NCBI GenBank assembly: GCA_965285935.1
Contig: OZ260662.1
Coordinates: 110,298,001 to 110,362,000, forward strand
Length of the DNA stretch: 64,000 nucleotides
DNA from: Ophelia neglecta
Taxonomy: Eukaryota
Reading direction: 5' to 3'
Below the pieces are notes generated by a model. It did no database searches. It was given only the letters and a program-made list of their open reading frames with translations, and had not been told where the DNA came from. This document shows, piece after piece, positions 4,960 through 64,000 of this stretch. The first letter of the stretch is position 1; each line of letters opens with the position of its first letter. Both the position numbers and the translations under genes were made by a program.

Positions 4960-5889
4960 TTATCCCTGGTAAATATGTACCTTTTTGAAATCTACACAAA
5001 CGGCAAGTCTTCGTGTGATAGGGTCAACTGTCACGTGACAAGTCTTACCTAAACATTGTTCTTTGGTCAACAGACAGCTCCATTGGTCTTTTTTGTTTTC
5101 TATCCAATAAGATACAACTCTCTCATTGTCCCTATCGCATACTATGATTCGTCCGGCCGGATCTATTGCTACCCCCAATGGATACATTAGTTGTCCATCT
5201 CCACGGCCCTGTCTACCGAATGTCTTTATGTGTTGTCGGTTTGTATCGAAGACCTTTACACAGTGGTTCCAACAGTCGCCGACAACAATAACAGGTTTAT
5301 CTATGCCAGACACTTTGCCTACACAAACATTGTACGGATCGTTGAACTGCATATGTCCATCGCCATGTGAGCCGAACCATTTGATCTCTTTTTTGGGGTC
5401 GTTGGCATCTATGACATACACCTTATGGACTTCTGCGTCGGACACAAAGTAAGAGTCGTTCTCTTTACAATATCCTACACCACGCAGGTCACGTCCTACC
5501 GGGACGCTATTCTGCACCACTCCTTTTCTGTCAAGCAGTTTCAGCGATGTCGAATATGGGACCATATAGAGGTCACGTTTGGTGTCCATGGCTAAGGCTC
5601 TATTGTGTCCCATCACCAACCCTCCTAAACCTTCTCCAATCTCCTCCTGCAGTGTCCAGTCATAGTTATATAGTTTAATAGGAGCCTTGGTGTCCTCGAC
5701 TCTGACTGCCAAGTTCTGACGCTTAATGTCCATAATGAGACTTGTGATATGTCCATTGAGGTCGACAAAACTGTTGATTTCGACCAGTTTATCCAGAGGG
5801 GCGTAATTGGAAGATGGATTTCCCTGTAACGTGTGACCTTGTAAGAGACAGTCGGTCCCTTGACGGACCTTGATATCGTGACAATTCAT
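4960..5889 (-). CDS. NHL-repeat beta-propeller protein (TRIM-NHL-like C-terminal region, no RING/B-box), intronless; possibly a truncated gene or pseudogene
   Basis: NHL repeats WFGSHGDGHMQFNDPYNVCV, IVVGDCWNHCVKVFD, TFGRQGRGDGQLMYPLGVAIDPAGRIIVCDRDNERV; first ATG at 5889 (the ORF track starts at GTG 5895); TATAAATA on the minus strand at 6015-6022. Confidence 0.8.
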   Translation of the reverse strand: MNCHDIKVRQGTDCLLQGHTLQGNPSSNYAPLDKLVEINSFVDLNGHITSLIMDIKRQNLAVRVEDTKAPIKLYNYDWTLQEEIGEGLGGLVMGHNRALAMDTKRDLYMVPYSTSLKLLDRKGVVQNSVPVGRDLRGVGYCKENDSYFVSDAEVHKVYVIDANDPKKEIKWFGSHGDGHMQFNDPYNVCVGKVSGIDKPVIVVGDCWNHCVKVFDTNRQHIKTFGRQGRGDGQLMYPLGVAIDPAGRIIVCDRDNERVVSYWIENKKDQWSCLLTKEQCLGKTCHVTVDPITRRLAVCVDFKKVHIYQG

Positions 5890-7194
5890 GATCACGGCTA
5901 ATGGTCCCTTATGAAGCTATGTACAGCCTTTGCTGATTCCGTCTGTGTGGTGCTTCACTGTGCTTCTATGTCTGGCCTGTGCGTCTATACAGCTGACGTG
6001 CGGCCGCTCACTGTTATTTATATCGATGTACTCGACTTGGCAGGAGAATGGAAACGACTGCTCCGGAAATACACAACCAAGCGGGTAGATTTCATATCAT
6101 AATGCGCGTTACATGAAGTAATAGCCTCGTGTGTGGAGTAATATACGTTATTTAAGGATTACATTAAGGGTAGAGTAAAAAAGAGACATTTATCAATAAA
6201 TAAGTGGACACTTCAAACAAAGAAAATGCTACAAATAAATGACAACAAATGCAGTGTTAGTACACTGCCTATCGATTGGAAATTAAATTTCTTAAATAAA
6301 GAAAACATCTAGGTATGAAATTATTTTTACTTTCTGAGGCCAAATATTTTATATAAAAGTGGTAGAGACGATAATGAAAATAACAGTAACCACTGTCCGT
6401 CCATTATGTGGATGTATGGTGTATTATAGCTATCGCTTTTATAATTATCATAAAGAAATTTACAAGTACTTTAAGGCTGGACAAAGGCGTACTTGTTTGC
6501 AGGAAGTAAATAGAAGCAAGCTACACAATGTAGTCAAACTATACATTGGTCTAAAGATAAGAAAGTCTCAAAAAAAGGCAATATAATTTTATCCTGTGTA
6601 AATGTATTTGTGGAATGCCGTAGATATGAAATATGCTATCCTACAGAACAATGATAAGCTGTCGGTTCGATGCAATGCAAACAAGCAATGACTATTCAGC
6701 GGTTATTATAGGCAAAACTGGCCACATTTAACGCCCGTTTGGAATATGAAGGTCATTTTGACAACCATGATGCCTTTTATCCTAGATCAATCACAGTTGA
6801 ACTCGCACATCATGCACCTAGGCCTATAATAGTCACAAATAACCTCCCCAGTGGCCTACAAGCTGATGTAGTAAATAGAATTGCTGTCAATTTTGTATTG
6901 ACGTCATATGGGTCAACCGAGCAGACGCCAGAATCGAAATCAGCGCACTAAACCCGTCTGCAAAGCATGATCTGAATTTTGTACTCGTAAATGCCTGAAC
7001 TTACTTATTTGGCCACATGTTGTTGATATCTGACTCTTTTAAACATCCTCTTTTTTATAATCATAACACGTAGCAGCGAGGCCTCGGTTGTCTTGTCCAA
7101 TTACAAACCAATTAAGGCCCCAGCTCAGACTACAAATGGACTGTAATTACTTCCGGAGTCTGAGAGATGGCTTGCTTAGCACAAGCGATACTGA

Positions 7195-12061: not shown

Positions 12062-14844
12062 ATATTACTATTATTATTATTATTTATTATTTATTGACTT
12101 TTCTATAGCGCATTTTCCATAAAAAAATATGTTCAAAAGCGCTTTACAGACTAATATAAAACAAGATAAACAATCATCATAAAAGCACATAATGTATGTT
12201 AAATATAAGTTAGAAGCTGAGAGATAAAACACAAAGGTACATAAGAGATACTAACCAAAAACCAGAATAATTTATATGGCAGCAGACGGAAATTAATTAT
12301 ACATTAAAAGTCAATTTAAATAAATGGGTTTTTAAAGCGGTCTTAAAACTGCTGTGTGTTTTAATTTGCCGTAGCGAAACTGGGAGTCCGTTCCACAGAC
12401 GCGGGACGTGAATGGCAAATGCCCGATCACCAAATGTTTTGAGATTGGCTGGCGGCTGGACCAATCTGTGCAACTCACCAGAGCGCAGTGCTCGTGGTGG
12501 CACATACGGCACAAGGATCTCATCCAGATAGGATAGGCCCAGACCATTCAAAGATTTGAATACCAACATGCAAATCTTGAATACACTTCTTGCCCCAATG
12601 GGCAACCAGTGTAGTTCCCTCAGAATTGGGGTGATTGGTTCATCCCTCCCAGCCAGGACCACTAGACGGGCAGCGCGATGATGGACTGATCGATGTTTGC
12701 GCAGGAGATTTTCCGGCACACCACACAGAAGGGAGTTGCAGTAATCCAGCCTTGAAACTACTAGAGATTGGACCAGCATCAGCTGCTTGGTAGCATCCAG
12801 AGTAAGACATTTACGGACGCGGCCAATGTTTCTGAGATGATAACTGGACGTCTTGACAACTTTAGACACATGAGCAGACATGCTGAGGTGTTAATCGAAG
12901 ACAGCACCCAGGTTATTTATGGGAGAGTCAGACACACTCACACGGCAGCCAGCTACATAGAGCTCCCTAACATCAACATGCTTTAATGCAGAGGGCGTGC
13001 TATTGATTTGATAAGTGGAACCAGAGCATCACCGGCCTTTTTCACAATCCATGTAGGTATCGGGTCAAGAGAGCACCCTTTGTTTGGGGAGTCAGCTATG
13101 ACTTTGAGGATCTCCTCGGCTGAAGCTGGATTCAGATCTGTGAGTGTAGAGGCTGTGGGTGGAATGTTAAAAGTCAAGTTCTCGCGGACTATAGGTAAGT
13201 CAGCCCGGATCTTACTGACCTTTGCTTCAAAGAAGTCGGCAAATTTTTTTGCAATATCAGCTGATGAGGTGTGAGATGGTAACTTCATGTCCCTGTGTCT
13301 GTGCATGATGTCATCAAGGACAGTCGCAAGTGCCTTTGAGTCAGAACCAGACTCAGCTATTCTAGACAGGTAATGTTGAGACTTGCTCTCGGACAGTTTA
13401 TTATTGTAGGCTGTCCTGGCCTCATTATACAGCTGACGATCGATCTCCAGCCCAGTCGCCCTGCATCTGCGATCACGCATGCGCTTGAAACATCTGGCAC
13501 GGTGTAATTCATCAGAAAACCATGGCCGAGATGCACGGAGAGTGACAGTTCGCGTTTTCAAGGGGGCATGTCGGTCGAGTAAACCACAGAGAAAAGTGTT
13601 GTAGTAAAGCGTGAGTCCAGCAGCAGAGAGATCAGAGGGCACAATAGAATCACGTATTTCCTCAGATATGATCTGAAGATCAAGCCCCCGCAGCTTCCTG
13701 GTAGATGTGGTAATCCGTGTAGGTTTGGGTTTAGGATGGTTAACATGGCAGAGGAAATGATCGGATATTTGATCACCTATCTCGACGTGACTGACAAGAT
13801 CACTAGTTTCCCTTGTAATGATGACATCCAATATATGACCAGATCGATGGGTCGGAGATGAGACATGCTGAGTAAGATTGTTAGAACTCAATGACTCAAG
13901 GAATTATGCAGCCTCACGGTTACCAGGCACATCAAGGTGAAAGTTCAAGTCACCCACAATAACAAGATCACCGAGTTAGTAGAAACATCCTCGAGTAATG
14001 AACCGAACTCATCAAAGAATTGCCTTGAAGAGAATTTATTTTTCCTTGACGGGGGAGGCCTATACAAAACGATGAAGCGAAGGAGCCTTGATCCAATGTT
14101 GAACAAAAGTTCTCCATGTTCGAATGACAGACCGTCCCTAGAGGCCTTCGACATAAGAGGAATGCTAGCCCTATACAGGACAGCCACTCCGCCGTAGCCA
14201 CCAGGCCGTGGGACATTGAAGAGTCTGTAGCCTGGCAGTGGCAGAGCCTTAGTAAAGAAATCATCCTTGCTATCCGCAGAGAGCCAAGTTTCTGTGATGG
14301 CCAACACATCGAGGTTATGCTCCAGCAATATGCCATGTATCATATCAGTCTTGTTGCGGATAGACTGGGCATTCACCACACCAACATCAAGGCACCTTGA
14401 TACATGGGCTGGATTTTTGATACATGGGCTGGAAGACAATGCTACAGATATCAGATTATCACGCCTGACAGCTAGGCCTTGTTTACCTGATCAGCTGTCA
14501 CTTGCCCCACTGGCCGAGCTGAGGTGATCACCTGTATGCTTTGTTGATCCAGGTGAGGTCTAAGTTCATTTTGTGGGCCTGGAGTTGGATTTATGTGTAC
14601 CAGGTTTGCCTCATTAACTCCAGTCTGGACAGTATGGTTAAACTTGCATGGTTTGTACATCACAATGTTCACATGGTGGTAGTGTCTCTTGCCAGCAGGT
14701 TTCTTTAGAAGGCAAACACTCCTCAAGCTATCGATGAGCTTGTGGTCGCGTACAGACCCAGGCTTGTTTAGTCTTTTCAGCTGTAATGCTTTCAAATAAG
14801 CAAATAATAGACTGAGCAGTAGAAATGTTTATATGGTATGCAGC
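12062..14844 (-). mobile_element. L2/CR1-group LINE, degenerate, with the RT core internally deleted; lies in intron 1 of the kringle gene
   Basis: APE endonuclease motifs (NAQSIRNK, LAITETWL, YRPP, THRSGHILD, SDH); L2-type C-terminus (SRLDYCNSLL, LHWLP, FKTALKTHLF); 3' end TGTAAAGCGC...TGCGCTATAG followed by an (AAT)n tail; frameshifts and stops. Confidence 0.9.
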
Positions 14845-22626: not shown

Positions 22627-22633
22627 TATAAAA
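22627..22633 (+). promoter_or_regulatory. Candidate TATA box of the TRPV-like gene
   Basis: TATAAAA about 40 nt upstream of ATG 22668. Confidence 0.3.
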
Positions 22634-22667
22634 CTGGGCAACCGGTCTCGAACAATTAGTGCCAAAG

Positions 22668-24545
22668 ATGAGATTCAAGGGAATTGCGACAAGGATTGGA
22701 GTCACCGAAAACATGCCTCAGCACAACAAGAAAATGTGTCTCCCGTTACCCCAGAATAAGAAGTGGTATGATATTATTGTAGGAGACCATGGAGAAGAGG
22801 CAATGGCTTTCTTAGGAAAATCCACAGCTTCTCAAAAGAAAAATCTGATGAATGGTGATTTCATATTTGATAATGCATTTCTAACGAATAGTTTGTTTAG
22901 CAAGTACGACTCGGTAAAGTTCCAACTGAAGAAGCCATTGTGCATAGCTGCTGCAATGGGTGCAAAGACTGTATTAAGAGTTTTAATAGAGAATGGCATC
23001 AATATCGACGGTGTCGAGTTTAATGATTACAATGTAATACACGTTCTAATAGGCATGGCGGTGTATTTTCCGGAGAGAGAAGAAAATTTAGTGGAAGTTT
23101 ATAGTTTGTTGTGTGAACTACTAACCGGAGACCAGCTCGGTGCCTTATTACACGCAGTGGATCATCTTGGGTTCAAGCCTCTCGAGAGTGCTGCAAAACA
23201 AGGTACCTTGAAACTGATGTCAGCTATTTTTGAAACCAAGGACATTTATCTAGCCAAGGTAGTTACAGTGAACACGTTTTCATACAAGTACTATGACCTT
23301 ACAGATTATGAGAACGCGTGCGTACCAGATGCTAAACATTTGCGGTCGCCATTGTTTCAGCTCATGTTCCTGGACAATGGTAAATTGGGTCTGCCCCATG
23401 TTGACGGGATGTTTGGGCCCGACATGCTCATACATGAATGGATTCGAGCAAAATACAATTGTAACCAACTGCTTGTACGCTTTTGGTTTTTACTACGGAT
23501 GAGTTTTTTCTTGGCTTATTTCATATATGATTCGGATGAGGAATGGGTTCGTCGGGCAGGCGGAATTCCAAGCGACCTTCCTATCGGAAATCTTACGACC
23601 AAAGGCTCCCACTTTGTCTACTGTGCAGGCTTTAGTAGTGTAGACAATGGGCCTGCCTTCCGTTATGGGCTTCTAATATTTCTAATTGTATACTGGTGGG
23701 GGTTCACCCTTGTGAGCCTTGTCGACTTGGTGCATACAATCAAACACTGGGCATTCTGGCAAGACTCATCTAAATACCTCCTTGGCAGGAAAGAGACCAT
23801 ACACAGCTACAGCTGGTATCGGATTTGCAACGAAATGACTGTGAATCTCATTGTTTTTAGTATCGCAATTCAAAACCATACCGTTGAGAGTAGGACTGAT
23901 TACGCAAAAGATTTGGCTAGAATCACAGCAACTGTCACAAGCATTTGGTCTCCTCTATATTTCATACAATTGATGCCACATGTCGGCCATTTTGTGATCA
24001 ATATTCAAAGAATGATCGGTGATATATTCAACTTTTCTATGGTGTTTATGGTCATAGTAATGCCTTTTACTCAAACGCTGCTGATATTTGTAAACTTAAA
24101 CTCGAAGCAAGGATGCATTGAGGATTTTTCTGGCCTCTGGAGAGGCGTCTACACTGTGCTGAAGACAATGCAAAATATTGGCGACATCTCCAAAATTGAT
24201 GTAGAAAAACAATTTATTGTCATTATTCTCCACGTTGCCATGATTTTCTTTATCTCAATTCTCCTGCTGAACTTTTTAATTGCGATAATGGCAAACTCTG
24301 TGTCTCAGATGAGTGATCGTGGAAAAGCTATCGTAGACCTACAATACCTTATTGTGTCCAGCCTTTTAGAGATGAGATTTAGGCGGCTTCTAAAGCCATA
24401 TTACAAATGGATGGTCCCAAGATCCTATGTTTGCGAGGGAGAGCGGATATATATTGTACTTACAGTTCCAGCTATACCTTCAGAAATAACTGAAAGGGGC
24501 TCTCATATCGAGCTAAAATTGATGGATGTAGAACATGACACCTAA
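22668..24545 (+). CDS. TRPV-like (TRPV/TRPVL family) cation channel, intronless, ~625 aa
   Basis: Ankyrin repeats (PLCIAAAMGAKTVLRVLIENG...NVIHVL; GFKPLESAAKQG); TRPV linker YYDLTDYE; S4-S5 YFIQLMPHVGHFVINIQRMIGDIFNFSMVF; S6 ILLLNFLIAIMANS; uninterrupted ORF. Confidence 0.88.
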   Translation: MRFKGIATRIGVTENMPQHNKKMCLPLPQNKKWYDIIVGDHGEEAMAFLGKSTASQKKNLMNGDFIFDNAFLTNSLFSKYDSVKFQLKKPLCIAAAMGAKTVLRVLIENGINIDGVEFNDYNVIHVLIGMAVYFPEREENLVEVYSLLCELLTGDQLGALLHAVDHLGFKPLESAAKQGTLKLMSAIFETKDIYLAKVVTVNTFSYKYYDLTDYENACVPDAKHLRSPLFQLMFLDNGKLGLPHVDGMFGPDMLIHEWIRAKYNCNQLLVRFWFLLRMSFFLAYFIYDSDEEWVRRAGGIPSDLPIGNLTTKGSHFVYCAGFSSVDNGPAFRYGLLIFLIVYWWGFTLVSLVDLVHTIKHWAFWQDSSKYLLGRKETIHSYSWYRICNEMTVNLIVFSIAIQNHTVESRTDYAKDLARITATVTSIWSPLYFIQLMPHVGHFVINIQRMIGDIFNFSMVFMVIVMPFTQTLLIFVNLNSKQGCIEDFSGLWRGVYTVLKTMQNIGDISKIDVEKQFIVIILHVAMIFFISILLLNFLIAIMANSVSQMSDRGKAIVDLQYLIVSSLLEMRFRRLLKPYYKWMVPRSYVCEGERIYIVLTVPAIPSEITERGSHIELKLMDVEHDT

Positions 24546-25609
24546 ACGAGACAAATAACAAACACAGCGTGCCACACTACTTATAAATACCATATGAGCT
24601 TGTAAGAATTTTAATAACGGACGGGTATTTGTTTGGGTTATATCTGTTATCAGAGGACAACACTGGGTACAAGCAGTGTGTTTATTGTTTTAGCCAATTT
24701 CGACAACCTTTTATCATTTAAAGATTTGGAGAAAACGGACCCAATCGAAGTAGACTAATCAAATGATGTTATTTATTTAAAATGTCTGACCCACACTTGA
24801 TGATTATTTCTGCAAGCGCTGATCTACAGGTAAGGCTCAATAATGTTAGCCTTATCAGCCTTTTTTTGCTAAATAGTGACTCTGAGGGCCATTAAAAACA
24901 AAACATACAATCGAACAATTCGATAACGTGCCATTTATGTAAGTACATTGTAATTAATGCGTATTTACGTAACCTTTGATCGGGGCATTTAAAACGAAGT
25001 CCCCACAACTGATGTCATCAAATTTATATCATTATCTGCTATGGAAAAGCCAAGCGAAATAACAAGTTTAATACATGTGATGGTGAATACTTTCCATTGG
25101 CACAAAGGCTTTGCTGTGGTTTAATACCCGTCAAATCTGGTAGATTATATGTGTAAATCTTATTATTAGTAGTAGTAGTAGTATTAGCAGTAGTATGAGG
25201 ACTATTATTATCATTAGCAGTCCATCGGTTGATCACAGCTCTTTTTATATATTCTATTACATTTAGAGGGCCTCATTGTTTTAATTAGATTGGATATTGT
25301 CGTAACTCATCCTGGATGCTTCAATTTGATATCATAATTTCCTCTTGTCATACATTCACCGCAGTTTACTAAGTTTAGTTAAAGTTCATTTAAAACTATG
25401 CACCAGATTAAATTAACTCATACAAATGTGTTGCCCACTTCCAAATAAATTAATCGTCAATATAAATATATATAGCAATGTCAAATGTAAAACGGAAACA
25501 AATTGGACCAACTTAACCATTCGCCACTTGACTTGCAGGACCGTATGGAACTAGTATGAGGTATCGACTTTATATACTAATAACATTATGACATTAGATA
25601 TACATGTGG

Positions 25610-27193
25610 CTATAATTCATCTTTAACATTTGAATTAGTGTTTTCCCTTGTGAGCATTGTTCTGAGTAAGGGGGCTGTCGAGTCTCATAAGGGACTCAAT
25701 GCGATCGCCCTGGAGAAGGAAGCCTCCCTGCCGATTGTAATCATCACAGCCGCACTGAGGGCGGTAGTACAGGAACACGTTTGCGTACAGGTCCCCGTTG
25801 TGCGGTTGAGGTCGTCCGTGAATGAGTTTAGCGGACTCCCGCACACCATACATAGGCTTTTACATCGACTGTCAGTTCTATCATGTCATTCGTAACTTCG
25901 TCGTAGTTTATAACGGAACCTGTAAAAGGTGAATTCTCTTCCCGAGAGAGGGGCTTGTGTGCGTCATAGAACTGACGTAGTAACTTATACCACTCATCGG
26001 GGATCTTTCTTAGGTGGTAGCCATGCTCAGTCAGTATGGGAACAAACAAGGGTTGTTTGAGTATCAGCATGTATCGGTCACTGTTCGTCTGTGACCACTC
26101 TTTTACTCGGGTTTCTTTCTTTGTAAACCGGTTCAGGATATCCAGTACTACAATGTCATCCGACTGGGTATCTCCATGGCTGTTCATGACGTTTATCACC
26201 AACGGACAGTTATTTCATAGGAACGGATGAATATCTCAGTCGGATCACTATAGGCCATCACAAGACTTGATTCATAAATAGAGATGTCTTTATTCTCCTC
26301 TGGCAGCATGCTGAATTGTGGGTAGGCTTCATGATCCGGTCCAGCCGGACCAAGATGGTCCACAAGTATCTTTACTGATATATCCTTGGAATTGGATATG
26401 GTGACCTTGACCTTGAGCTGGTCCCATACCCAGGTAAACAAAGTTGTTAAACGGGAATTTGTATCTACGTTCTGTTGCCAGGTAACAGCTGTTTCATTCT
26501 TAGTGCTGCCTCTTGGTATAAACAGTACCTTTAAAGCGCATGGTATAAAACATATCAAATATTAGTGCCGTAAATCTCAATGATCTCTCCGATATTGCAC
26601 GATGCTACATCTTCTCAACTAGGTTTCTATAAAATTACTATCGTGGATTCGCAGATACTGGGAATATTAATGGTTTTATTATAAATCAAAGAATCTTAAG
26701 GCTGTAATGTGTTTTGATCATAAGAACAGGAACTGACCTCGGGACAGTTGACGACATTGAACCTGAGGCGAAGGTCGTCTGCATTGTCCTTGAACCACGT
26801 GTGTTCCTGTGAGGTGCGGTAGTCATGCTGTAGATAGACCAGCCTTCTCGTAGGAGGCGCAGCAAGGGAAACTAACCCAAGTTTATTCATTTTGTTAGAG
26901 CAGCTGGAATCGTAAATCGCTAACAATCCATGTTTGTCACTAACAATCCATGTTTGTCACTAACAATCCATGTTTGTCACTAACAATCCATGTTTGTCAC
27001 TAACAATCCATGTTTGTCAATAACAATCCTTGTTTGTCACTAACAATCCATGTATGTCAGTGATTCCTGAGCCATCAGTCTTCATGATATGGTCATCAAG
27101 ATGCTCCCCACTCCACACGTTAAAATGGCTGTCCGTGTAAACGACAGATAATATACTACTGATCATCATGACCAGAGCAATGCACACAACCAT
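25610..27193 (-). pseudogene. Pseudogene paralog (copy A) of the ER 2OG-Fe(II) oxygenase; exons 27193-26738 and 26528-25610
   Basis: Collinear with 30974-32713 (FNVWSGE, YDSSC, QHDYRT, CPE|V, ESAKLIHGRP, KDEL). Lesions: 20-bp repeat expansion with a stop, 1-nt frameshift at ~26205, two deletions at ~25838/25851 removing HxD, and KDEL out of frame. Confidence 0.88.
26921..27060. repeat. 7 x 20-bp tandem repeat TAACAATCCATGTTTGTCAC inside the coding exon of copy A
   Basis: Directly visible; the paralog has a single corresponding unit (DKNALL). Confidence 0.95.
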
Positions 27194-30973: not shown

Positions 30974-32152
30974 CTAAAGCTCGTCCTTGAACTTCGACTT
31001 AGTATAGAAGACTTTTCTCTTGTGGGCATTTTTCTGTGTCAGATGGCTGTTAAGCGGCATAAGAGACTCTATCTGGTCACCCTTGCTAAGCAGGCCTCCA
31101 TGACGTTTATAATCATTCCAGCCACTCTGAGGCCGGTAATGAAGGAAAACATTTGCGTACAGGTCCCCGTTGAGAGGCTGGGGTCGTCCGTGAATGAGTT
31201 TAGCGGACTCGTACATTAACATCTCTCCTGGAGACAGCTCAATATGGTGACGGTCTCCTTGGTAATCTATGACCTCCAGTAACCATGGGGTCCGGACCTG
31301 TTGATCTATCTGTAGAATTGCTGAAATGACGTGTGTTTCTATGCGGTCCACGTGATTCCGTAGTATACTGCCGTTGTGGTACACGCGCACCCCGTAAAAG
31401 GCAGTCATCTCCAACTTGCAGTCACACCATTCCTCCATCAGGGTCTTGAGTCCGTCAGCAACATAGGTTTTCACTTCAGAGGTCAGCTCTATCATGTCAT
31501 TCGGCACTTCATCGTAGTTGATAACAGAGTCTATAAATGGCCACGTCTCCTCGCGGGAGAGGGGCTTGTGAGCGTCATAGAATTGTCGCAATACGCTGTA
31601 CCACTGCTCTGGGATCTTTCTCAGGTGGTAGCCATGCTCCGTGAGCTCGTGGACAAGCAAGGGTTGTTTGAGATTCAGCAAGTAGCGATCACTGTTTGTC
31701 CGTAACCATTCTCTAATTCTGACGTCTTCCTTTTCAAATCTGCTCTGGATATCACCCCTTACCATTTCCTCCAATCTGTCATCTCCAGGGCTGTTTATCA
31801 GGTTTATCACCATCGGACCAGTTACTTCCCACGCGCCGATGAATGTTTCAGTCTGACGGTGCCTTCCGGCAGTATAGGTCATTACAAGACTTGATTCGTA
31901 TATAGAAATTTCCTTAGTTTCTCCTGGCATCATGCTGAATTGTGGGTAGAATTCCGGACTTGGGCCAGCCACATCAAGACGCTCCACGCGTACTTTTACT
32001 GCTAGGTCCTTGAAGTTTTTTATTATAACCTTGACCTTTATCTGATCCCATACCCAGGTGCGAAAGGGGACGGTTGAAATACTTGGATCTAGACTCCATT
32101 GCCAGGCGGCAACAGGATCACTTTTAGTTCTACCTCGAGATATGAACAACAC
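30974..32152 (-). CDS. ER-resident 2OG-Fe(II) oxygenase (copy B), coding exon 2
   Basis: Acceptor CTACAG|GTG; catalytic region FYGVRVY...RNHVDR...ISAILQIDQ...PWLLEV...PGEMLMYESAKLIHGRP...YANVFLHYRP with HxD (31346-31354) and distal His (31190-31192); C-terminal KDEL-stop. Confidence 0.9.
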   Translation of the reverse strand: MLFISRGRTKSDPVAAWQWSLDPSISTVPFRTWVWDQIKVKVIIKNFKDLAVKVRVERLDVAGPSPEFYPQFSMMPGETKEISIYESSLVMTYTAGRHRQTETFIGAWEVTGPMVINLINSPGDDRLEEMVRGDIQSRFEKEDVRIREWLRTNSDRYLLNLKQPLLVHELTEHGYHLRKIPEQWYSVLRQFYDAHKPLSREETWPFIDSVINYDEVPNDMIELTSEVKTYVADGLKTLMEEWCDCKLEMTAFYGVRVYHNGSILRNHVDRIETHVISAILQIDQQVRTPWLLEVIDYQGDRHHIELSPGEMLMYESAKLIHGRPQPLNGDLYANVFLHYRPQSGWNDYKRHGGLLSKGDQIESLMPLNSHLTQKNAHKRKVFYTKSKFKDEL

Positions 32153-32374
32153 CTGTAGTATATATTGTATTATATTACATTACATATGAACATTCATTGA
32201 AGTTCGTTGAGTAAAAATTTGGAAGTTCGAGAAGTTAACATAGATTGAGATGATCTTCACTAATTACTTTAAGATAAATAAAAAGCCAATGGTAAATATT
32301 TTGTAGCTCATATTTTGGCCTAAGGTGATTAGTATGTTACACAAACTAGAAGGAAAACCTTAACATGTACTAAC

Positions 32375-32713
32375 CTCGGGACATTTGCTGACCTTGAATC
32401 GGAAGCGAAGGTCGTCTCCATTGTCCTTGAACCACGTATGTTCCTGGGCTGTGCGGTAGTCATGTTGTAGATACACAAGAGTGCTGGTTGGAGGCAGAGC
32501 AAATGAAGATATGCCCAACTTATATGTCATGATTTGCGAGCAGCTCGAATCGTAAATTACCAACAAAGCATTCTTGTCCGTAGTACCGGATCCGTCAGTT
32601 TTCATAAGAATGTCATCAAGATTCTCTCCACTCCATACGTTGAAAATATTGGCCGTCGATGGTGATATCAGTACAAAAACCGTAACTACGGAAATGGTGA
32701 TGTGAGAAGCCAT
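32375..32713 (-). CDS. ER-resident 2OG-Fe(II) oxygenase (copy B), coding exon 1 (signal peptide + thioredoxin-like segment)
   Basis: MASHITISVVTVFVLISPSTA signal peptide; phase-0 donor GAG|GTTAGT joins exon 2 in frame (113+392 = 505 aa); same intron position in copy A; a 5'UTR acceptor (CAG|GTT) is conserved in both copies (32766, 27247). Confidence 0.88.
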
Positions 32714-51385: not shown

Positions 51386-53945
51386 CAATGTGGTGTCATA
51401 GGCCTTTTCCTTATCGAAGAAAATTACAATGTAGTGCTCGCCCCTTACAAAGGCTTGTCTTTTATAGAGGTTTTGAGCCGAACTAGATGATCTATGGTGC
51501 TCCTGCCCCTCCTGAACCCAGATTGGTACACCGTTAACAACTTGTTGGTTTCGAGGAACCAGACAAGTCTGTCGTTGATGATCCTCTCCATGATCTTGCA
51601 GAGACAGCTGGTGAGAGCTATGGGACGGTAGTTGGTACTTTCAGTGGCATCTTTTCCTATTGCTTTTTTCCACGAAGGTGGGAATGTTTGGAGGGAACTA
51701 GGGGGGAGATGTTTAAGGAATTGGTAGTGGATTTGATCCGGACCAGGGGCCGAATCGTGGGTTTTAGATAAAGAGCTCTGAAGTTCACGGACTGTTATTG
51801 ATCTATTGTAAGGCATGTCTTGTTTGGTGTGGAAGTTGAGTGGGTTTTTTCTTGTATTCTTTTATGTTGTTGAAATGAGTGGGTATAATTTTGAGAAGAG
51901 GAGTTTCGGGTGAAACTCTCTCCGAGGCAGTTTGCTATGTCAATAGTTTCGGTAATTGTTGAGTTATTGTGTGTGAGGTGGATTATTATTTGACTCACTC
52001 CTTTGCCACTGATTTTCCGAACTACGTCCCAGGTCTTTTTCAAAGAAGAGTGATGGTTCAGCTGGGACACGTAGTTTTGCCAGCTGCTCTTCTTTGCCAC
52101 AGGATTTTAAAAGAGTCCAAATTTGCCTGGATGGGATGACGTCTAAAACGTCTTAGGGCCTTTTGTCCTTCTTTTATAGCTGCTCTGCATTCTTCATTAA
52201 ACCATGGTTTGGATCGTTTTTTGGTGTACCACTGGACCTCGGGATGCACTCAGCAGCAATGTCATGGACAATGGTGGTGAATGCATCCATCGGATCCTCA
52301 GCACGTTGGAACGTCTCTGGAACAATCCTTTCTTCACAGAGAGTGGTGAATTTACTCCAGTCCGCTCTGCGCAGTTTCCACTGCGGGACCCCTTCTTTTG
52401 GCCTGGTTGGTTGGTGGTCAACCACACCGGGAAATGGTCACTGCCACAGAGGTCGGGCTGAACGGTCCAATTCAAGTCTAGGAGATGGGAAGGGTCACAG
52501 AGAGATACATCTATTGATGTCTGTGCCCCGTTTCCCGGGTGCAGGAAGGTAGGACCACCTGAGTTTAAAATACATAAATTATTTAAATGTATGAAGTCCT
52601 CTAGACGTCTTCCCTTGTCGTCTGTCGTGTCTCCTCCCCATAGTGGTATAAGAAAGCCCATTTTATTTATAGGTATATGTAACCTACCATTTGCAATTAT
52701 ACTTTGTCTTTGAATTAATGAAATTAATTAAATCGTAGGGGAGGTGAATTATAAGAAAGATGAAATTCAAGATTAATCATGTACAGCACATCCCTGTATC
52801 TTCCATATTAAAACACCCCCCATATATATTGTATGTATCTAAATACTCCGGTGCTGAGACCAAAGGCTTCTCCATAAATAAATCTAAAATATCTCTAGGG
52901 GTACAACGACATCAGTGACTAGAATGTGTTCTAATAATAATCAAGCTCTCCTCCTACTGATGTTGCCCGGGAGATCAGACCCCGCTATTATTGGTAGGAA
53001 CACACCAACGTCATCCGACAACAACCTTCTCCCTGCCCAACCAATTAAGGCGAAAATCAAAACATACCCCATAGCAAAATATAACCGCTCCCCTAGTTAT
53101 ATGAGAAGCCACGGTCTTGTAAAGCACCAGGAGAGAGACAACCACCGGGAAGAATAAACTTTGCTAATACGCTAGAAACCTCCAGGTAAGAACTTATGTT
53201 ATATGTTTAATATCAAACAATATAAGACCGAATTGTCTTATAGTGGGTTGTGGGCATTAAAGTCGCCGAGGAGAACGACAGGACTTGGGAGTTGGTCCAG
53301 GAGAGACTGTAGATCATCCATGTTTAATAGTTTTGAAGGGGGGCAATAAATGGTACAAATAGTGATTGTTTTATGTAGTGTAACCCTGATTGCAACCGCC
53401 CGCATGTTGGTGTTCAGGGTTACTTGGCTCTGAGGACTGCGATTTTGGACTAATATAGAAACCCCAACACAAGCTCTGCCATCAATAGTTGGGTTTTGTT
53501 GGTCGTCATCAGAGTCATCATGTTTTTGTCTTTTTTTGGAGGTGGTTGTGATTGGGGGATCCATGTAGCACATGGGTTTTAATGCATGCGGGCACCACCC
53601 TTACTTCTTTGAGCCCAACTAAGGGACACCGTCTGGGGATCGCTCCAGTCACAGACAAATGTCAGTGCTACGCATCCATATACGTCCAGATCAGCACCAA
53701 CTATGTCGGTAACTGGTCCAGACTAATGTGTCAGGCTGAACACCGCCTCCTGTCTAGGGGGAAATAAGGGCCGAAGTGGTGTGTTGCCGCTAAACACCGC
53801 AGTGATTAGGTAAGCTCAACCACCAGGATCCCGTCTTCCCCCCAACACAGGTCGCATCCCACGGCAAACAGGACGCCCCTTTTAGTCGCCTTTTACGACA
53901 CGCAGAGGTACGTCGGGCCTATTCTTTCCCCAATTTACAGGAGGA
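51385..53945 (-). mobile_element. I-group (Nimb-like) LINE, degenerate, with internal deletion and a nested insertion
   Basis: EN motifs IYCPP, LGDFNAHNPLWG, SIDVSLC, GSDHFP; RT N-half APGPDQIHY, NYRPIALTSCLCKIMER, QSGFRRGRSTIDHL, FFD.EKAYD; 5' UTR 53560-53945. Confidence 0.85.
52647..53239. mobile_element. Unclassified ~0.6-kb insertion splitting the LINE endonuclease
   Basis: ATAGTGG duplicated at 52640-52646 and 53240-53246; removing the insert restores HNPL-WGG. Confidence 0.7.
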
Positions 53946-61315: not shown

Positions 61316-64000
61316 ATTATTTGTTATTTATTTTATTTATTTATTTATTTATTTAATGACATTTATATAGCGCATTGTTTCATATAAAAATACAACATGT
61401 TCACAAGCGCTGTACAATAGATTAAGATAAGAATAAAAGAAAAATAAAGTAAAAGATAAAATAGTTAGAAGGTCTAAAACTGGCAAAAATGAAAATACAT
61501 GCAAGATTATAAATTAAGAATATGCACATTTAAAAAGGAATGTCTTCAGGTTTTTCTTAAAAGCACCAAAATTAGGGGACAGTTTGACTTCTGCAGGTAG
61601 TTTATTCCACCACCGGGGCGCGCAAACAGCAAATGATCGGTCCCCAGCAGTGGACAAGTGAGACACAGGCTCAACCAGCAGCACTTGGCTAGCCGATCTA
61701 AGACTTCGACTAGGGTTGTAAGGCACAAGGAAAGGTTTAAAATAGGCAGGCCCTGAGTTATTCAAAACCTTAAAAACTAGACATAGGATTTTAAATTTCA
61801 CTCTGAACTCAATGGGGAGCCAATGCAGTTCAAACATAATTTGAGTTATGGAATCATCCCTCCCAGCACGAACAATGAGTCTTGCAGCACGGTGATGGAC
61901 CATTTGAAGTCTGTGTGCAAGGGATTGGGTGATGTTGCACAGCAAGCCATTACAGTAATCTAGTCGGGAGATCACAAGACTCTGGACTAGTTGTTGAGCA
62001 GTTTCTCTTGTGAGCCGGGATCTAACACGACCTATGTTCCTTAGATGGAAACTAGCAGACCTGATGGTCTTGCTAACAAACTCAGACATCTTAAGCTTCT
62101 GGTCGAATACAGCACCCAGATTACCGATAGCATCAGCTGCCACTGACACACTAGTGCCAGCTACAGAGAGGGACCTGATGTTGAGCAGCTTGAGTCGCCT
62201 CTCAGTTCCAACTCGGTTTTCTCGGCATTTAGCTTGAGCTTATTAGCAGTCATCCACGAATGTATATCACTAAGACAGGATTCCAAACTTTCCAGCGCAA
62301 GATGAACATTATCGCTATTCTTGAGTTCATTGATTCGAAGATAGACTTGTGTGTCGTCAGCATATCCATGTGTTTCGAGTCCACGGGATATCACAAGACG
62401 GTGCAATGGTAGCAGGTACACTAAGAAAAGCAGTGGGCCAAGCACTGACCCCTGCGGAACAGAGCACGAAAGAGACGTGGGGAGTGACAATGCGTCACCA
62501 ATTTTCACTCTTTGGGAGCGGCCAGTCAGGTAAGATCTGAACCATTCCAGTGCTGTTCCGTGTACACCCAACACAGTCCTCATCCTGTCCAGGAGAACCG
62601 CATGGTCGATCGTGTCGAACGCTGCACTTAGGTCCAGTAACACCAGTACAGCGACACCATGATTATCAATTGTAGACAGAAGATCATTCTGCACTTTGAT
62701 AAGCGCAGTCTCTGTACTATGACCACTTTTATAAGCAGACTGAAAAGGGTCATGCAAGCTGTATTCATTCATGTACTTGTTTAGTGTAGAAGCTACAATC
62801 CGCTCAAGTACCTTTGAGAGAAATGTAAGGTTGCTCACAGGTCTGTAGTTCTTTAACAGCTCAGGGTCGAGTGATGGCTTTTTAAGCAAGGGAGTTACTA
62901 CAGCTCCCTTCATATAGTCAGGAAACACACATGTAGAAAGAGAAGAGTTCACCACTGCTGTAGCGAGCGGGACAAGCGAGTCTATGACCTCCTTAACCAT
63001 CCAGGTTGGCATTGGATCTACCGAACAACACTTGCTGGGGGCAGCACAGATAACTTTTCGGATCTCTTCATGGGTGGCCGGCTCAAAAAATGACAATGAG
63101 CCAGGTGGAGGAGGGACCACAATAGCAGGACAGTTGTTAACAACAGGAAGTCCTGTCCTAATTTTCTCAATCTTTGTGTGGAAGAAATCAACAAAACGAT
63201 TGGCCAGGTCTTCAGAAGAAGAGTGACAGGGCAGCTTTACCTCCTCCTTACGCTGCATAATTCTGTCTAACACACTCTTCAGCTTACGAGAGTCTGAGCC
63301 AGAGTCCTGTATTTGTTGAAGTAAGTATTTAGTTTTGGCCTTATCCAACATGTTGTTGTACTTGGTGGCAAGTTCTCTGTAGATCTGTTTGTGCACCGTG
63401 AGATTAGACTTCTCCCAGCGACGCTGAGCACTACGCTTGGCGCATTTAGCCCTGTGCAATTCATCACTGAACCAGGGCTGTGAAGGACGAATTGTGACAG
63501 TACGGCACCTGACTGGGGCGTGGCTGTCAAGTATGTCAGACATTATACTGTTGTAGCTGTCTGTGAGAGATGACGGTGATGGGTCAGTCAGTGACACTGT
63601 GGAACAAGCTGACGTCACGTCAGCGGACACCATATCCAGATTGATCCCACGGAGCTTTCTGGTGGATACAGTAACCCGTTGTGTAGCAGGCCTGGGATAA
63701 GAAACAGTACACCGAATAAAATGATGATCAGAAATAAGATCACTCACTTTAACATTTTTAAGAAAGTCAGCATTGTCCCTGGTTATAACAACATCAAGGA
63801 TATGACCCGACTGGTGCGTTGGGCTGGTTACATGCTGCTTATAGTTCAGGGAATGTATTAAGTTCCTGAAATTGCTGGCATCAGTATCATTTAACTTATC
63901 CAAGTGAAAGTTGAGATCTCCCATCAATAGGAAATCACCAGCACTGCTCATCCTATCATGGAGGAAAGGTGAGAATTCATTGAAGAATTGTGCGGAAGTA
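61316..64000 (-). mobile_element. L2-clade LINE, near-intact ORF2 (EN C-part + RT), runs off the window end
   Basis: GDLNFH, THQSGHILD, SDH; NYRPVSNL, LDLSAAFDTIDH, VPQGSVLGP, YADD; a single frameshift at ~62208; L2 3' end AGCGC...TGCGCTATATAA and an (ATAA)n tail. Confidence 0.95.

Follow-up and report, generated by a model that had tools for sequence, protein, structure and literature searches.

The 64-kb stretch of the Ophelia neglecta genome analyzed here (contig OZ260662.1, positions 110,298,001 to 110,362,000; referred to below as the window, with positions counted from its first letter) contains a two-exon gene, which extends on the minus strand from an ATG at 32713 to a stop at 30974 and encodes a 505 amino acid protein with a C-terminal KDEL. 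Exon 1 (32375-32713, codons 1-113, delimited by splice sites in the sequence) specifies a signal-like peptide (approximately residues 1-22), recognized by eye as a hydrophobic N-terminal stretch, and most of a thioredoxin-like domain. A phase-0 GT..AG intron of 222 nt (32153-32374, predicted from the sequence) lies within this domain. Exon 2 (32152-30974, VLFI...KVIIKNFKDLAVKV...MMPGETKEISIYESSL...KDEL, defined by its open frame and splice site) encodes the last strands and the helix of the thioredoxin-like domain (VLFI...TWVWDQI, 32039-32152, assigned from the secondary structure of a paralog model), a VHL beta-like domain of approximately residues 152-232 (31795-32038, assigned from structure matches and profile comparison), a long linker helix with approximate boundaries (31660-31794; 39 residues, H239-277, in the paralog model), a 2-oxoglutarate (2OG)-Fe(II) oxygenase domain of the Syn9-gp54/PHROG2954 type (31100-31659, assigned from His380, Asp382, His434 and family residues) and, as read from the translation, KDEL with the stop codon (30974-30988). 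All these elements are on the minus strand. The exon 1 motifs ALLVIYDSSC, which holds Cys58, and DDLRFRFKVSKCP, which holds Cys111-Pro112, were located where the first-pass annotation had placed them, and, in support of its proposal of one chain, a signal-like N-terminus, thioredoxin fold, VHL beta sandwich, 2OG oxygenase and own KDEL were found together in a single protein.

A fusion artefact of the gene model was ruled out by the intronless paralog L013 and by 69 relatives that have the same architecture. The intron of the window gene is missing from L013. Contigs of three runs cover the intron as well as intergenic DNA, and none has a joint at the intron. Searching with exon 1 for longer proteins, which was a weak search, found none.

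The protein used for structure prediction was the product of L013 (P0020) and not the spliced window protein; the two are collinear, and P0020 is 42-44% identical to the two exons. AlphaFold predicted full-length P0020 with a pLDDT of 91.7 and a pTM of 0.89 (86 sequences), and its N-terminal part with a pLDDT of 92.1. There was no Pfam match in either exon, NCBIfam gave nothing useful, and the family profile matched no PDB sequence at E 10. In structure comparison (VIA) of the N-terminal part pVHL ranked at the top, with thioredoxin folds next. Residues 1-125 matched thioredoxins (Z 8.3, root mean square deviation 2.7, 104 aligned; 46 of 50 rows), and the model contains the thioredoxin core beta-alpha-beta-alpha-beta-alpha-beta-beta-alpha. 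For residues 121-207 the best match was pVHL (Z 8.9, root mean square deviation 3.1, 82 aligned), and all rows listed by Foldseek for the N-terminal part were pVHL (best E 1e-4). As Z values of this size are moderate, and as a luminal beta domain of the HGSNAT type, which is unrelated, tied with the pVHL-region match at Z 8.2, the fold calls were tested by sequence, too. With hhalign, the family profile of the N-terminal domain matched 19 thioredoxin/PDI pieces of the same genome with Prob 95.1 (E 3e-8), and the middle domain matched a profile whose seed was this genome's pVHL with Prob 97.1 (E 5.7e-11), a value obtained with only the 59 rows that the pVHL-seeded profile itself does not detect. 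Twenty column shuffles of each profile gave maximal Prob values of 0.78 and 0.92, respectively, which rules out chance resemblance of the two modules, and all cross-domain controls stayed below Prob 1. The thioredoxin-like and VHL beta-like folds, first proposed by eye, were thus recovered both by structure prediction on the paralog and by profile comparison. The VHL-like domain of the window protein was detected by profile-profile comparison and structure only; an iterated VHL profile failed to detect it directly, and the Pfam VHL model matched 3 of 86 family members, at E 0.06 or weaker. In the Atlas an annelid homologue also points to thioredoxin, below the Atlas naming bar.

Profile alignment placed Cys58 (32540-32542) at the first Cys of the thioredoxin WCGHC motif, without the second Cys of CxxC, and Cys111 (Cys111-Pro112, 32378-32383) at the residue preceding the cis-Pro. 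No CxxC motif was present in any of 77 family rows. Cys occupies the Cys58 position in 72 of 77 rows and the Cys111 position in 69 of 80; counted without correction for kinship, both cysteines occur in 66 of 77 rows, Cys58 alone in 6, neither in 5 and Cys111 alone in 0. The cis-Pro position, which is Pro112 in the window protein, holds Pro in 44 of 80 rows, and the family's domain has a conserved W[YF] insert. This pattern would fit a disulfide between Cys58 and Cys111, either structural or redox. The term 'redox-dead', which the first-pass annotation had applied to the module, agrees with the absence of CxxC, but inactivity is unproven because the two cysteines at thioredoxin active-site positions are co-conserved.

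The hydroxyproline pocket of pVHL includes W88, S111, H115 and W117, according to PMC6650433. At these four of the six positions given there, the window protein has V169, I197, S201 and V203. A pVHL-seeded search found 49 domains in 46 of the 218 family proteins sampled, and 35 of the 49 kept W, S/T, H and an aromatic residue at the four positions; Y98 was not conserved. These domains stand before the oxygenase in 21 proteins, after it in 8 with the thioredoxin domain first (7 end in xxEL), and between thioredoxin and oxygenase in 4. A peptide-binding sandwich, as suggested earlier, is plausible for the family, but in the window protein all four tested pocket residues are replaced. A second VHL-like match in the genome (C9:72695108-72695287, L024) has a stop or an intron within it.

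The triad of the oxygenase (His380, Asp382, His434) is intact in the window protein, which also has the family residues Arg369, Tyr371, Leu377, His387, Arg436 and His451 and the RxY, LxxHxD and HxR motifs of Syn9-gp54/PHROG2954. The PHROG2954 profile was matched with E 2.1e-16 and Syn9 gp54 with Prob 94.8, and the S-SCSM1 gene 114 protein, which is 43% identical, was also the top viral structure match. By sequence, the window oxygenase belongs to the uncharacterised Syn9-gp54/PHROG2954 family. The model folds as a double-stranded beta-helix (DSBH), with a best Z of 15.2 and several prolyl hydroxylases no more than 1 Z away; the top rows, spread over a few Z, mix the prolyl hydroxylases vCPH, PHD and PPHD with halogenase homologues and AlkB proteins. 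PHROG2954 and Syn9 gp54 are labelled 'ferrochelatase' in phage records (for example L021:22603-23145, which matches the 2OG-oxygenase domain), and PMC11561400 treats PHROG2954 as such; given the DSBH fold, this label looks wrong and was rejected.

Across the family the triad is present as His in 80 of 82 rows, Asp in 72 of 82 and distal His in 72 of 80, triad residues having been lost in some distant members. Arg at distal His+2 (Arg436) occurs in 72 of 80 rows, in Syn9 gp54, and in 11/11 bacterial and 76/78 viral homologues; all 11 bacterial proteins share the active-site residues of the window protein, and 76 of the 78 viral ones share the three that were scored. In strand VIII, where an Arg/Lys usually binds the 2OG C5 carboxylate, distal His+10 to +12 hold no conserved basic residue (Arg at +10 in 8 of 79), and a P4H-like (prolyl 4-hydroxylase-like) exon of the same genome has Lys-Trp at the strand-VIII and final-Trp positions. 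The hallmark residues were mapped by sequence spacing. According to PMC4396695, a Tyr is common to all P4Hs (His-3, i.e. PHD2 Tyr310 and CrP4H Tyr140), Leu is found in prolyl 3-hydroxylases (P3Hs), and Arg in both. The family has Leu at His-3 in 62 of 82 rows (Leu377 in the window protein), Val in 12, Ile in 6 and Tyr in 0. At His+7 it has His in 73 of 83 rows and Arg in 2, and His occupies the final Trp position of prolyl hydroxylases in 65 of 80. The His+7 position would correspond to the strand-III substrate Arg (PHD2 Arg322, OGFOD1 Arg162).

At E 0.001 the family profile matched 4619 representatives (150 listed). A degenerate form of the thioredoxin-VHL-oxygenase architecture was present in 69 of the 218 sampled relatives, and 43 of the 69 have KDEL-like ends; because the 218 proteins were chosen by likeness to the family profile, the set is enriched for the three-domain form. 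Named carriers are Dimorphilus gyrociliatus, Ammonia and Reticulomyxa, and the Atlas adds diatom clusters. The architecture, which had been noted as unusual, is real but not peculiar to the window gene. A tree of the catalytic domain (198 of the 218 proteins) had weak deep support and gave no order of domain gain. No description of the architecture was found in a broad search of mostly open literature, although the supplement of PMC2938197 may list it. It is real and conserved, and apparently undescribed so far, on a known oxygenase family.

Gene neighbourhoods were compared around homologues of the catalytic domain in viruses and bacteria. In 78 of 80 viral loci (L065-L144) a PF13640 P4H-like domain is fused to the gp54-like domain; the 80 loci come from one query (P0069), are hence kin, and form 10 clusters at 70% identity. 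Within 4 kb, Pro-rich proteins were found at 75 of the 80 loci (9 of the 10 clusters), PF11397 glycosyltransferases at 51 by clustering and 23 by direct BLAST (7 clusters), HPAT-like proteins at 21 (4 clusters) and O-FucT-like proteins at 24 (4 clusters); nucleotide-sugar genes accompany the glycosyltransferases. The commonest Pro-rich neighbour carries a crAss muzzle domain, and the PF11397 family includes a hydroxyproline N-acetylglucosamine transferase. This cassette suggests phage-encoded hydroxyproline glycosylation of virion proteins. A similar fusion occurs at 11 Acidimicrobiia/Actinomycetota loci, with HPAT-like genes at 9, O-FucT-like genes at 10 (BLAST) and, at 6, a PqqD-domain protein consisting of a leader and a PTxx-repeat tail (L145:3578-4177, L149:3526-4173 and 4 further Acidimicrobiia loci). 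The Acidimicrobiia combination of double oxygenase, HPAT-like, O-FucT-like and PTxx protein is a candidate bacterial pathway for hydroxyproline O-glycopeptides. At 18 cyanophage loci a PF13640 gene adjoins in all 18, and O-FucT is present in 15. HPAT and PF11397 searches of the O. neglecta genome gave no match, but the positive controls were equally silent, so that the result carries no weight.

Taking these observations together, we propose, at a probability of about 0.5, that the window protein is an endoplasmic reticulum (ER) hydroxylase of Pro/Hyp-rich secreted proteins that acts after a P4H. The second hydroxylation would likely be at C3 and yield 3,4-dihydroxyproline; Leu at His-3 is the P3H state described in PMC4396695 and is not specific to P3Hs. 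The N-terminus and KDEL would place the enzyme in the ER lumen. There, Arg436 and Tyr371 would hold 2-oxoglutarate, a role that normally falls to an Arg/Lys of strand VIII. The VHL beta domain may ancestrally have been a hydroxyproline reader that fed 4-hydroxylated chains to the active site, and in the window protein it would serve either as a degenerate spacer or as a binder whose specificity has changed. The thioredoxin-like domain, with a putative Cys58-Cys111 disulfide, may serve as a folding or substrate-docking module and not as a classical PDI. Two papers describe the product: PT/Sxx repeats in which a residue modelled as 3,4-dihydroxyproline carries two glycans (PMC11725842), and dihydroxyproline in mussel Mefp-1 (PMC4275877). 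A dihydroxyproline pathway would need a second hydroxylase beside the P4H and two types of glycosyltransferase, so the gene context fits.

A broader reading, which we put forward only tentatively, is that the missing synthase of peptidyl 3,4-dihydroxyproline is the Syn9-gp54 family as a whole. In viruses and bacteria it would act after a P4H to which it is often fused, in eukaryotes it would be paired with a VHL beta domain reading 4-hydroxyproline in the ER, and in invertebrates it would have expanded as thioredoxin-VHL-oxygenase proteins with a non-CxxC Cys pair. The ER writer-reader fusion, independent of oxygen sensing, is part of this synthase reading and shares its tentative standing.

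Several findings weigh against a proline-directed second hydroxylase. The hydroxyproline pocket is lost from the VHL-like domain of the window protein itself, and the prolyl-hydroxylase substrate Arg is absent from the His+7 position. Leu at His-3 occurs in AlkB and lysyl hydroxylase as well. In the viral fusions the P4H-like partner has Phe and not Tyr at His-3 in 76 of 78, so this position is of little diagnostic value, and the partner itself is not proven to be active. No Pro-repeat open reading frame was found near the 18 cyanophage loci, 11 of which are more than 90% identical to their query. The context evidence is one of neighbourhood in distant viral and bacterial homologues, which share only the catalytic domain with the window protein. 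As to the literature, fungal Tpa1 dihydroxylates proline alone according to PMC4543633, so two enzymes are not required for dihydroxyproline, and secondary-metabolite roles were suggested for Syn9 gp54 homologues in PMC2938197.

The same ER oxygenase could have another target, i.e. Thr, Lys, Arg, another residue or an O-glycan sugar on secreted glycoproteins, or a small molecule. This is a possibility to be taken seriously, although we consider it doubtful. It would account for the His found in most rows at the Arg and Trp positions of prolyl hydroxylases, for the glycosyltransferase and nucleotide-sugar genes near the viral homologues, for the mixing of prolyl hydroxylases, halogenase homologues and AlkB among the top structural rows, and for the secondary-metabolite roles just mentioned, whereas the P4H-like fusions in viruses and Actinomycetota, the PTxx-repeat, Pro-rich and HPAT-like neighbours and the repeated pairing in eukaryotes with a VHL hydroxyproline-pocket domain all point to proline. 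The Cys58-Cys111 pair could, in a way compatible with hydroxylation after a P4H, be a working redox centre with an attacking Cys and a resolving Cys at the cis-Pro loop, coupling thiol exchange to hydroxylation or client retention. The positions of the two cysteines and the finding that Cys111 never occurs without Cys58 would suit such a centre, but 5 of 77 rows, among them an annelid protein, lack both cysteines, which fits a dispensable structural disulfide, and cis-Pro is kept in little more than half of the rows; we regard a redox centre as rather unlikely.

The view of the first-pass annotation, that this is a collagen-type prolyl 4-hydroxylase whose single chain includes a PDI-like domain and a substrate-binding sandwich, is improbable and was not supported for the window protein. 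In its favour, the chain has a thioredoxin fold, KDEL and a VHL-like fold of the peptide-binding kind, vCPH, PHD and PPHD rank high among the structural matches, and the pTM of the paralog model suggests fixed domain packing. Against this, the catalytic domain is of the gp54 family, which is separate by sequence; the P4H hallmarks are missing (no Tyr at His-3, His in place of Trp, Arg at distal His+10 in few rows); and a single thioredoxin domain without CxxC stands in place of four-domain PDI. Library scans gave no P4Ha_N or TPR match, and the paralog model has neither a TPR nor a coiled-coil N-domain. Because there is no TPR or dimerisation domain, and because separate collagen-P4H loci (P4Ha_N) are present elsewhere in the genome, the window protein is likely not a collagen prolyl hydroxylase. 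Still less credence, indeed very little, is given to a non-catalytic or non-2OG protein: the missing basic residue of strand VIII and the loss of triad residues in some distant members would fit it, but the window triad is intact, the His+2 Arg is kept from Syn9 gp54 to bacteria, and the gene is under strong purifying selection (see below).

The proposed hydroxylase was compared with known systems. Its catalytic domain is homologous to the Syn9-gp54-like oxygenases, but whereas the phage proteins examined are single-domain or P4H-fused, the window protein adds a signal-like peptide, thioredoxin-like and VHL beta domains and KDEL, and belongs to an intron-bearing gene family in an animal-type genome. 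Homologues of gp54 are expanded in diatoms according to PMC2938197, which in the part seen gives no substrate and does not mention VHL. In collagen P4H (alpha2-beta2, P4HA and PDI), too, an ER 2OG oxygenase is joined by a thioredoxin fold, a module that binds peptides and a signal for ER retention. Collagen P4H, however, has one domain for dimerisation and a TPR domain for substrate binding, and its PDI is supplied in trans (PMC12433258); none of these is seen in the window protein, and the active-site hallmarks differ. Like the PHD/pVHL writer-reader system, the window protein pairs a prolyl-hydroxylase-like DSBH with a pVHL beta domain, whose pocket is kept in many relatives (35 of 49 domains) and lost in the window copy. 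PHD and pVHL are separate cytosolic/nuclear proteins; here both folds are in one KDEL-ending chain, and no VHL alpha domain is seen in the paralog model. Prolyl 3-hydroxylases (OGFOD1/Tpa1, collagen P3H) have Leu at His-3 and the proposed C3 chemistry in common with the window protein, but no sequence-family link was found, the substrate Arg is replaced by His and the accessory domains are different. Collagen P3H requires prior 4-hydroxylation. ERp44, ERp29/Wind and PDILT (rows 28, 41 and 49 of 50 structure matches) are also ER thioredoxin folds without a full CxxC; they differ from the present domain, which has a second conserved Cys before cis-Pro, the W[YF] insert and the oxygenase fusion.

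The data describe a widespread family of secretory-pathway oxygenases (foraminifera, an annelid, diatom clusters and many other eukaryote records) that is mostly missed by Pfam, and show that KDEL-type proteins can contain VHL beta domains in which the hydroxyproline-pocket residues are intact. They also suggest that thousands of marine phage 'ferrochelatase' genes may be protein-modifying oxygenases, and offer candidates for both enzyme and substrate of 3,4-dihydroxyproline formation, such as the PqqD-leader PTxx peptide encoded beside its enzyme. 3,4-Dihydroxyproline has been known in diatoms since 1969, and no enzyme for it in secreted proteins was named in the literature examined. If true, the family-wide synthase reading would name the enzyme for dihydroxyproline in diatom walls and adhesives, in TLP-4-type glycofibrils and in mussel glue.

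The gene is one of several copies. A search of the 762 Mb genome with exon 2 gave 29 matches at approximately 20 loci, mainly clustered on contig C2, and 8 of 20 loci entered the selection analysis as intact exon 2 frames. The ratio of nonsynonymous to synonymous divergence (dN/dS) of exon 2 was 0.11 relative to the nearest paralog (L002), and that of the catalytic domain was 0.06-0.15 in 6 of 7 paralog pairs, the seventh pair being saturated. Exon 2 of the window gene is under strong purifying selection. Between exon 2 of L001 and L003, dS was 0.16 in the catalytic domain and 0.6-1.3 upstream; this mosaic pattern suggests that tandem paralogs have undergone gene conversion or recombination.

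A second copy in the window, at approximately 25600-27193 on the minus strand, is a pseudogene: its exon 1 has a 21-nt tandem expansion that contains stops, there are frameshifts, and the HxD region is deleted. Both cysteines are retained in it; the earlier statement that they are conserved in the paralogs holds for this copy, which is, however, a pseudogene. In contigs of all three runs 120 nt are skipped at the tandem expansion (26916-27037), and these contigs may represent another allele or paralog. Tail to tail with the pseudogene lies an ankyrin/TRP-like channel frame of 637 aa (22632-24545, plus strand; PKD_channel E 7.8e-7, Ion_trans E 4.9e-6). Because the 3' end of this channel recurs beside four other oxygenase loci (L003, L004, L005 and L015), channel and oxygenase were duplicated as a cassette. 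Just downstream of the oxygenase gene there is a short repeat of very high depth (30106-30372). Elsewhere in the window, an NHL-repeat open frame of 318 aa lies on the minus strand at 4960-5916, and LINE-like reverse transcriptase/endonuclease remnants were recognized by eye from translations at 12297-14490, 52197-52727 and 61514-62239.

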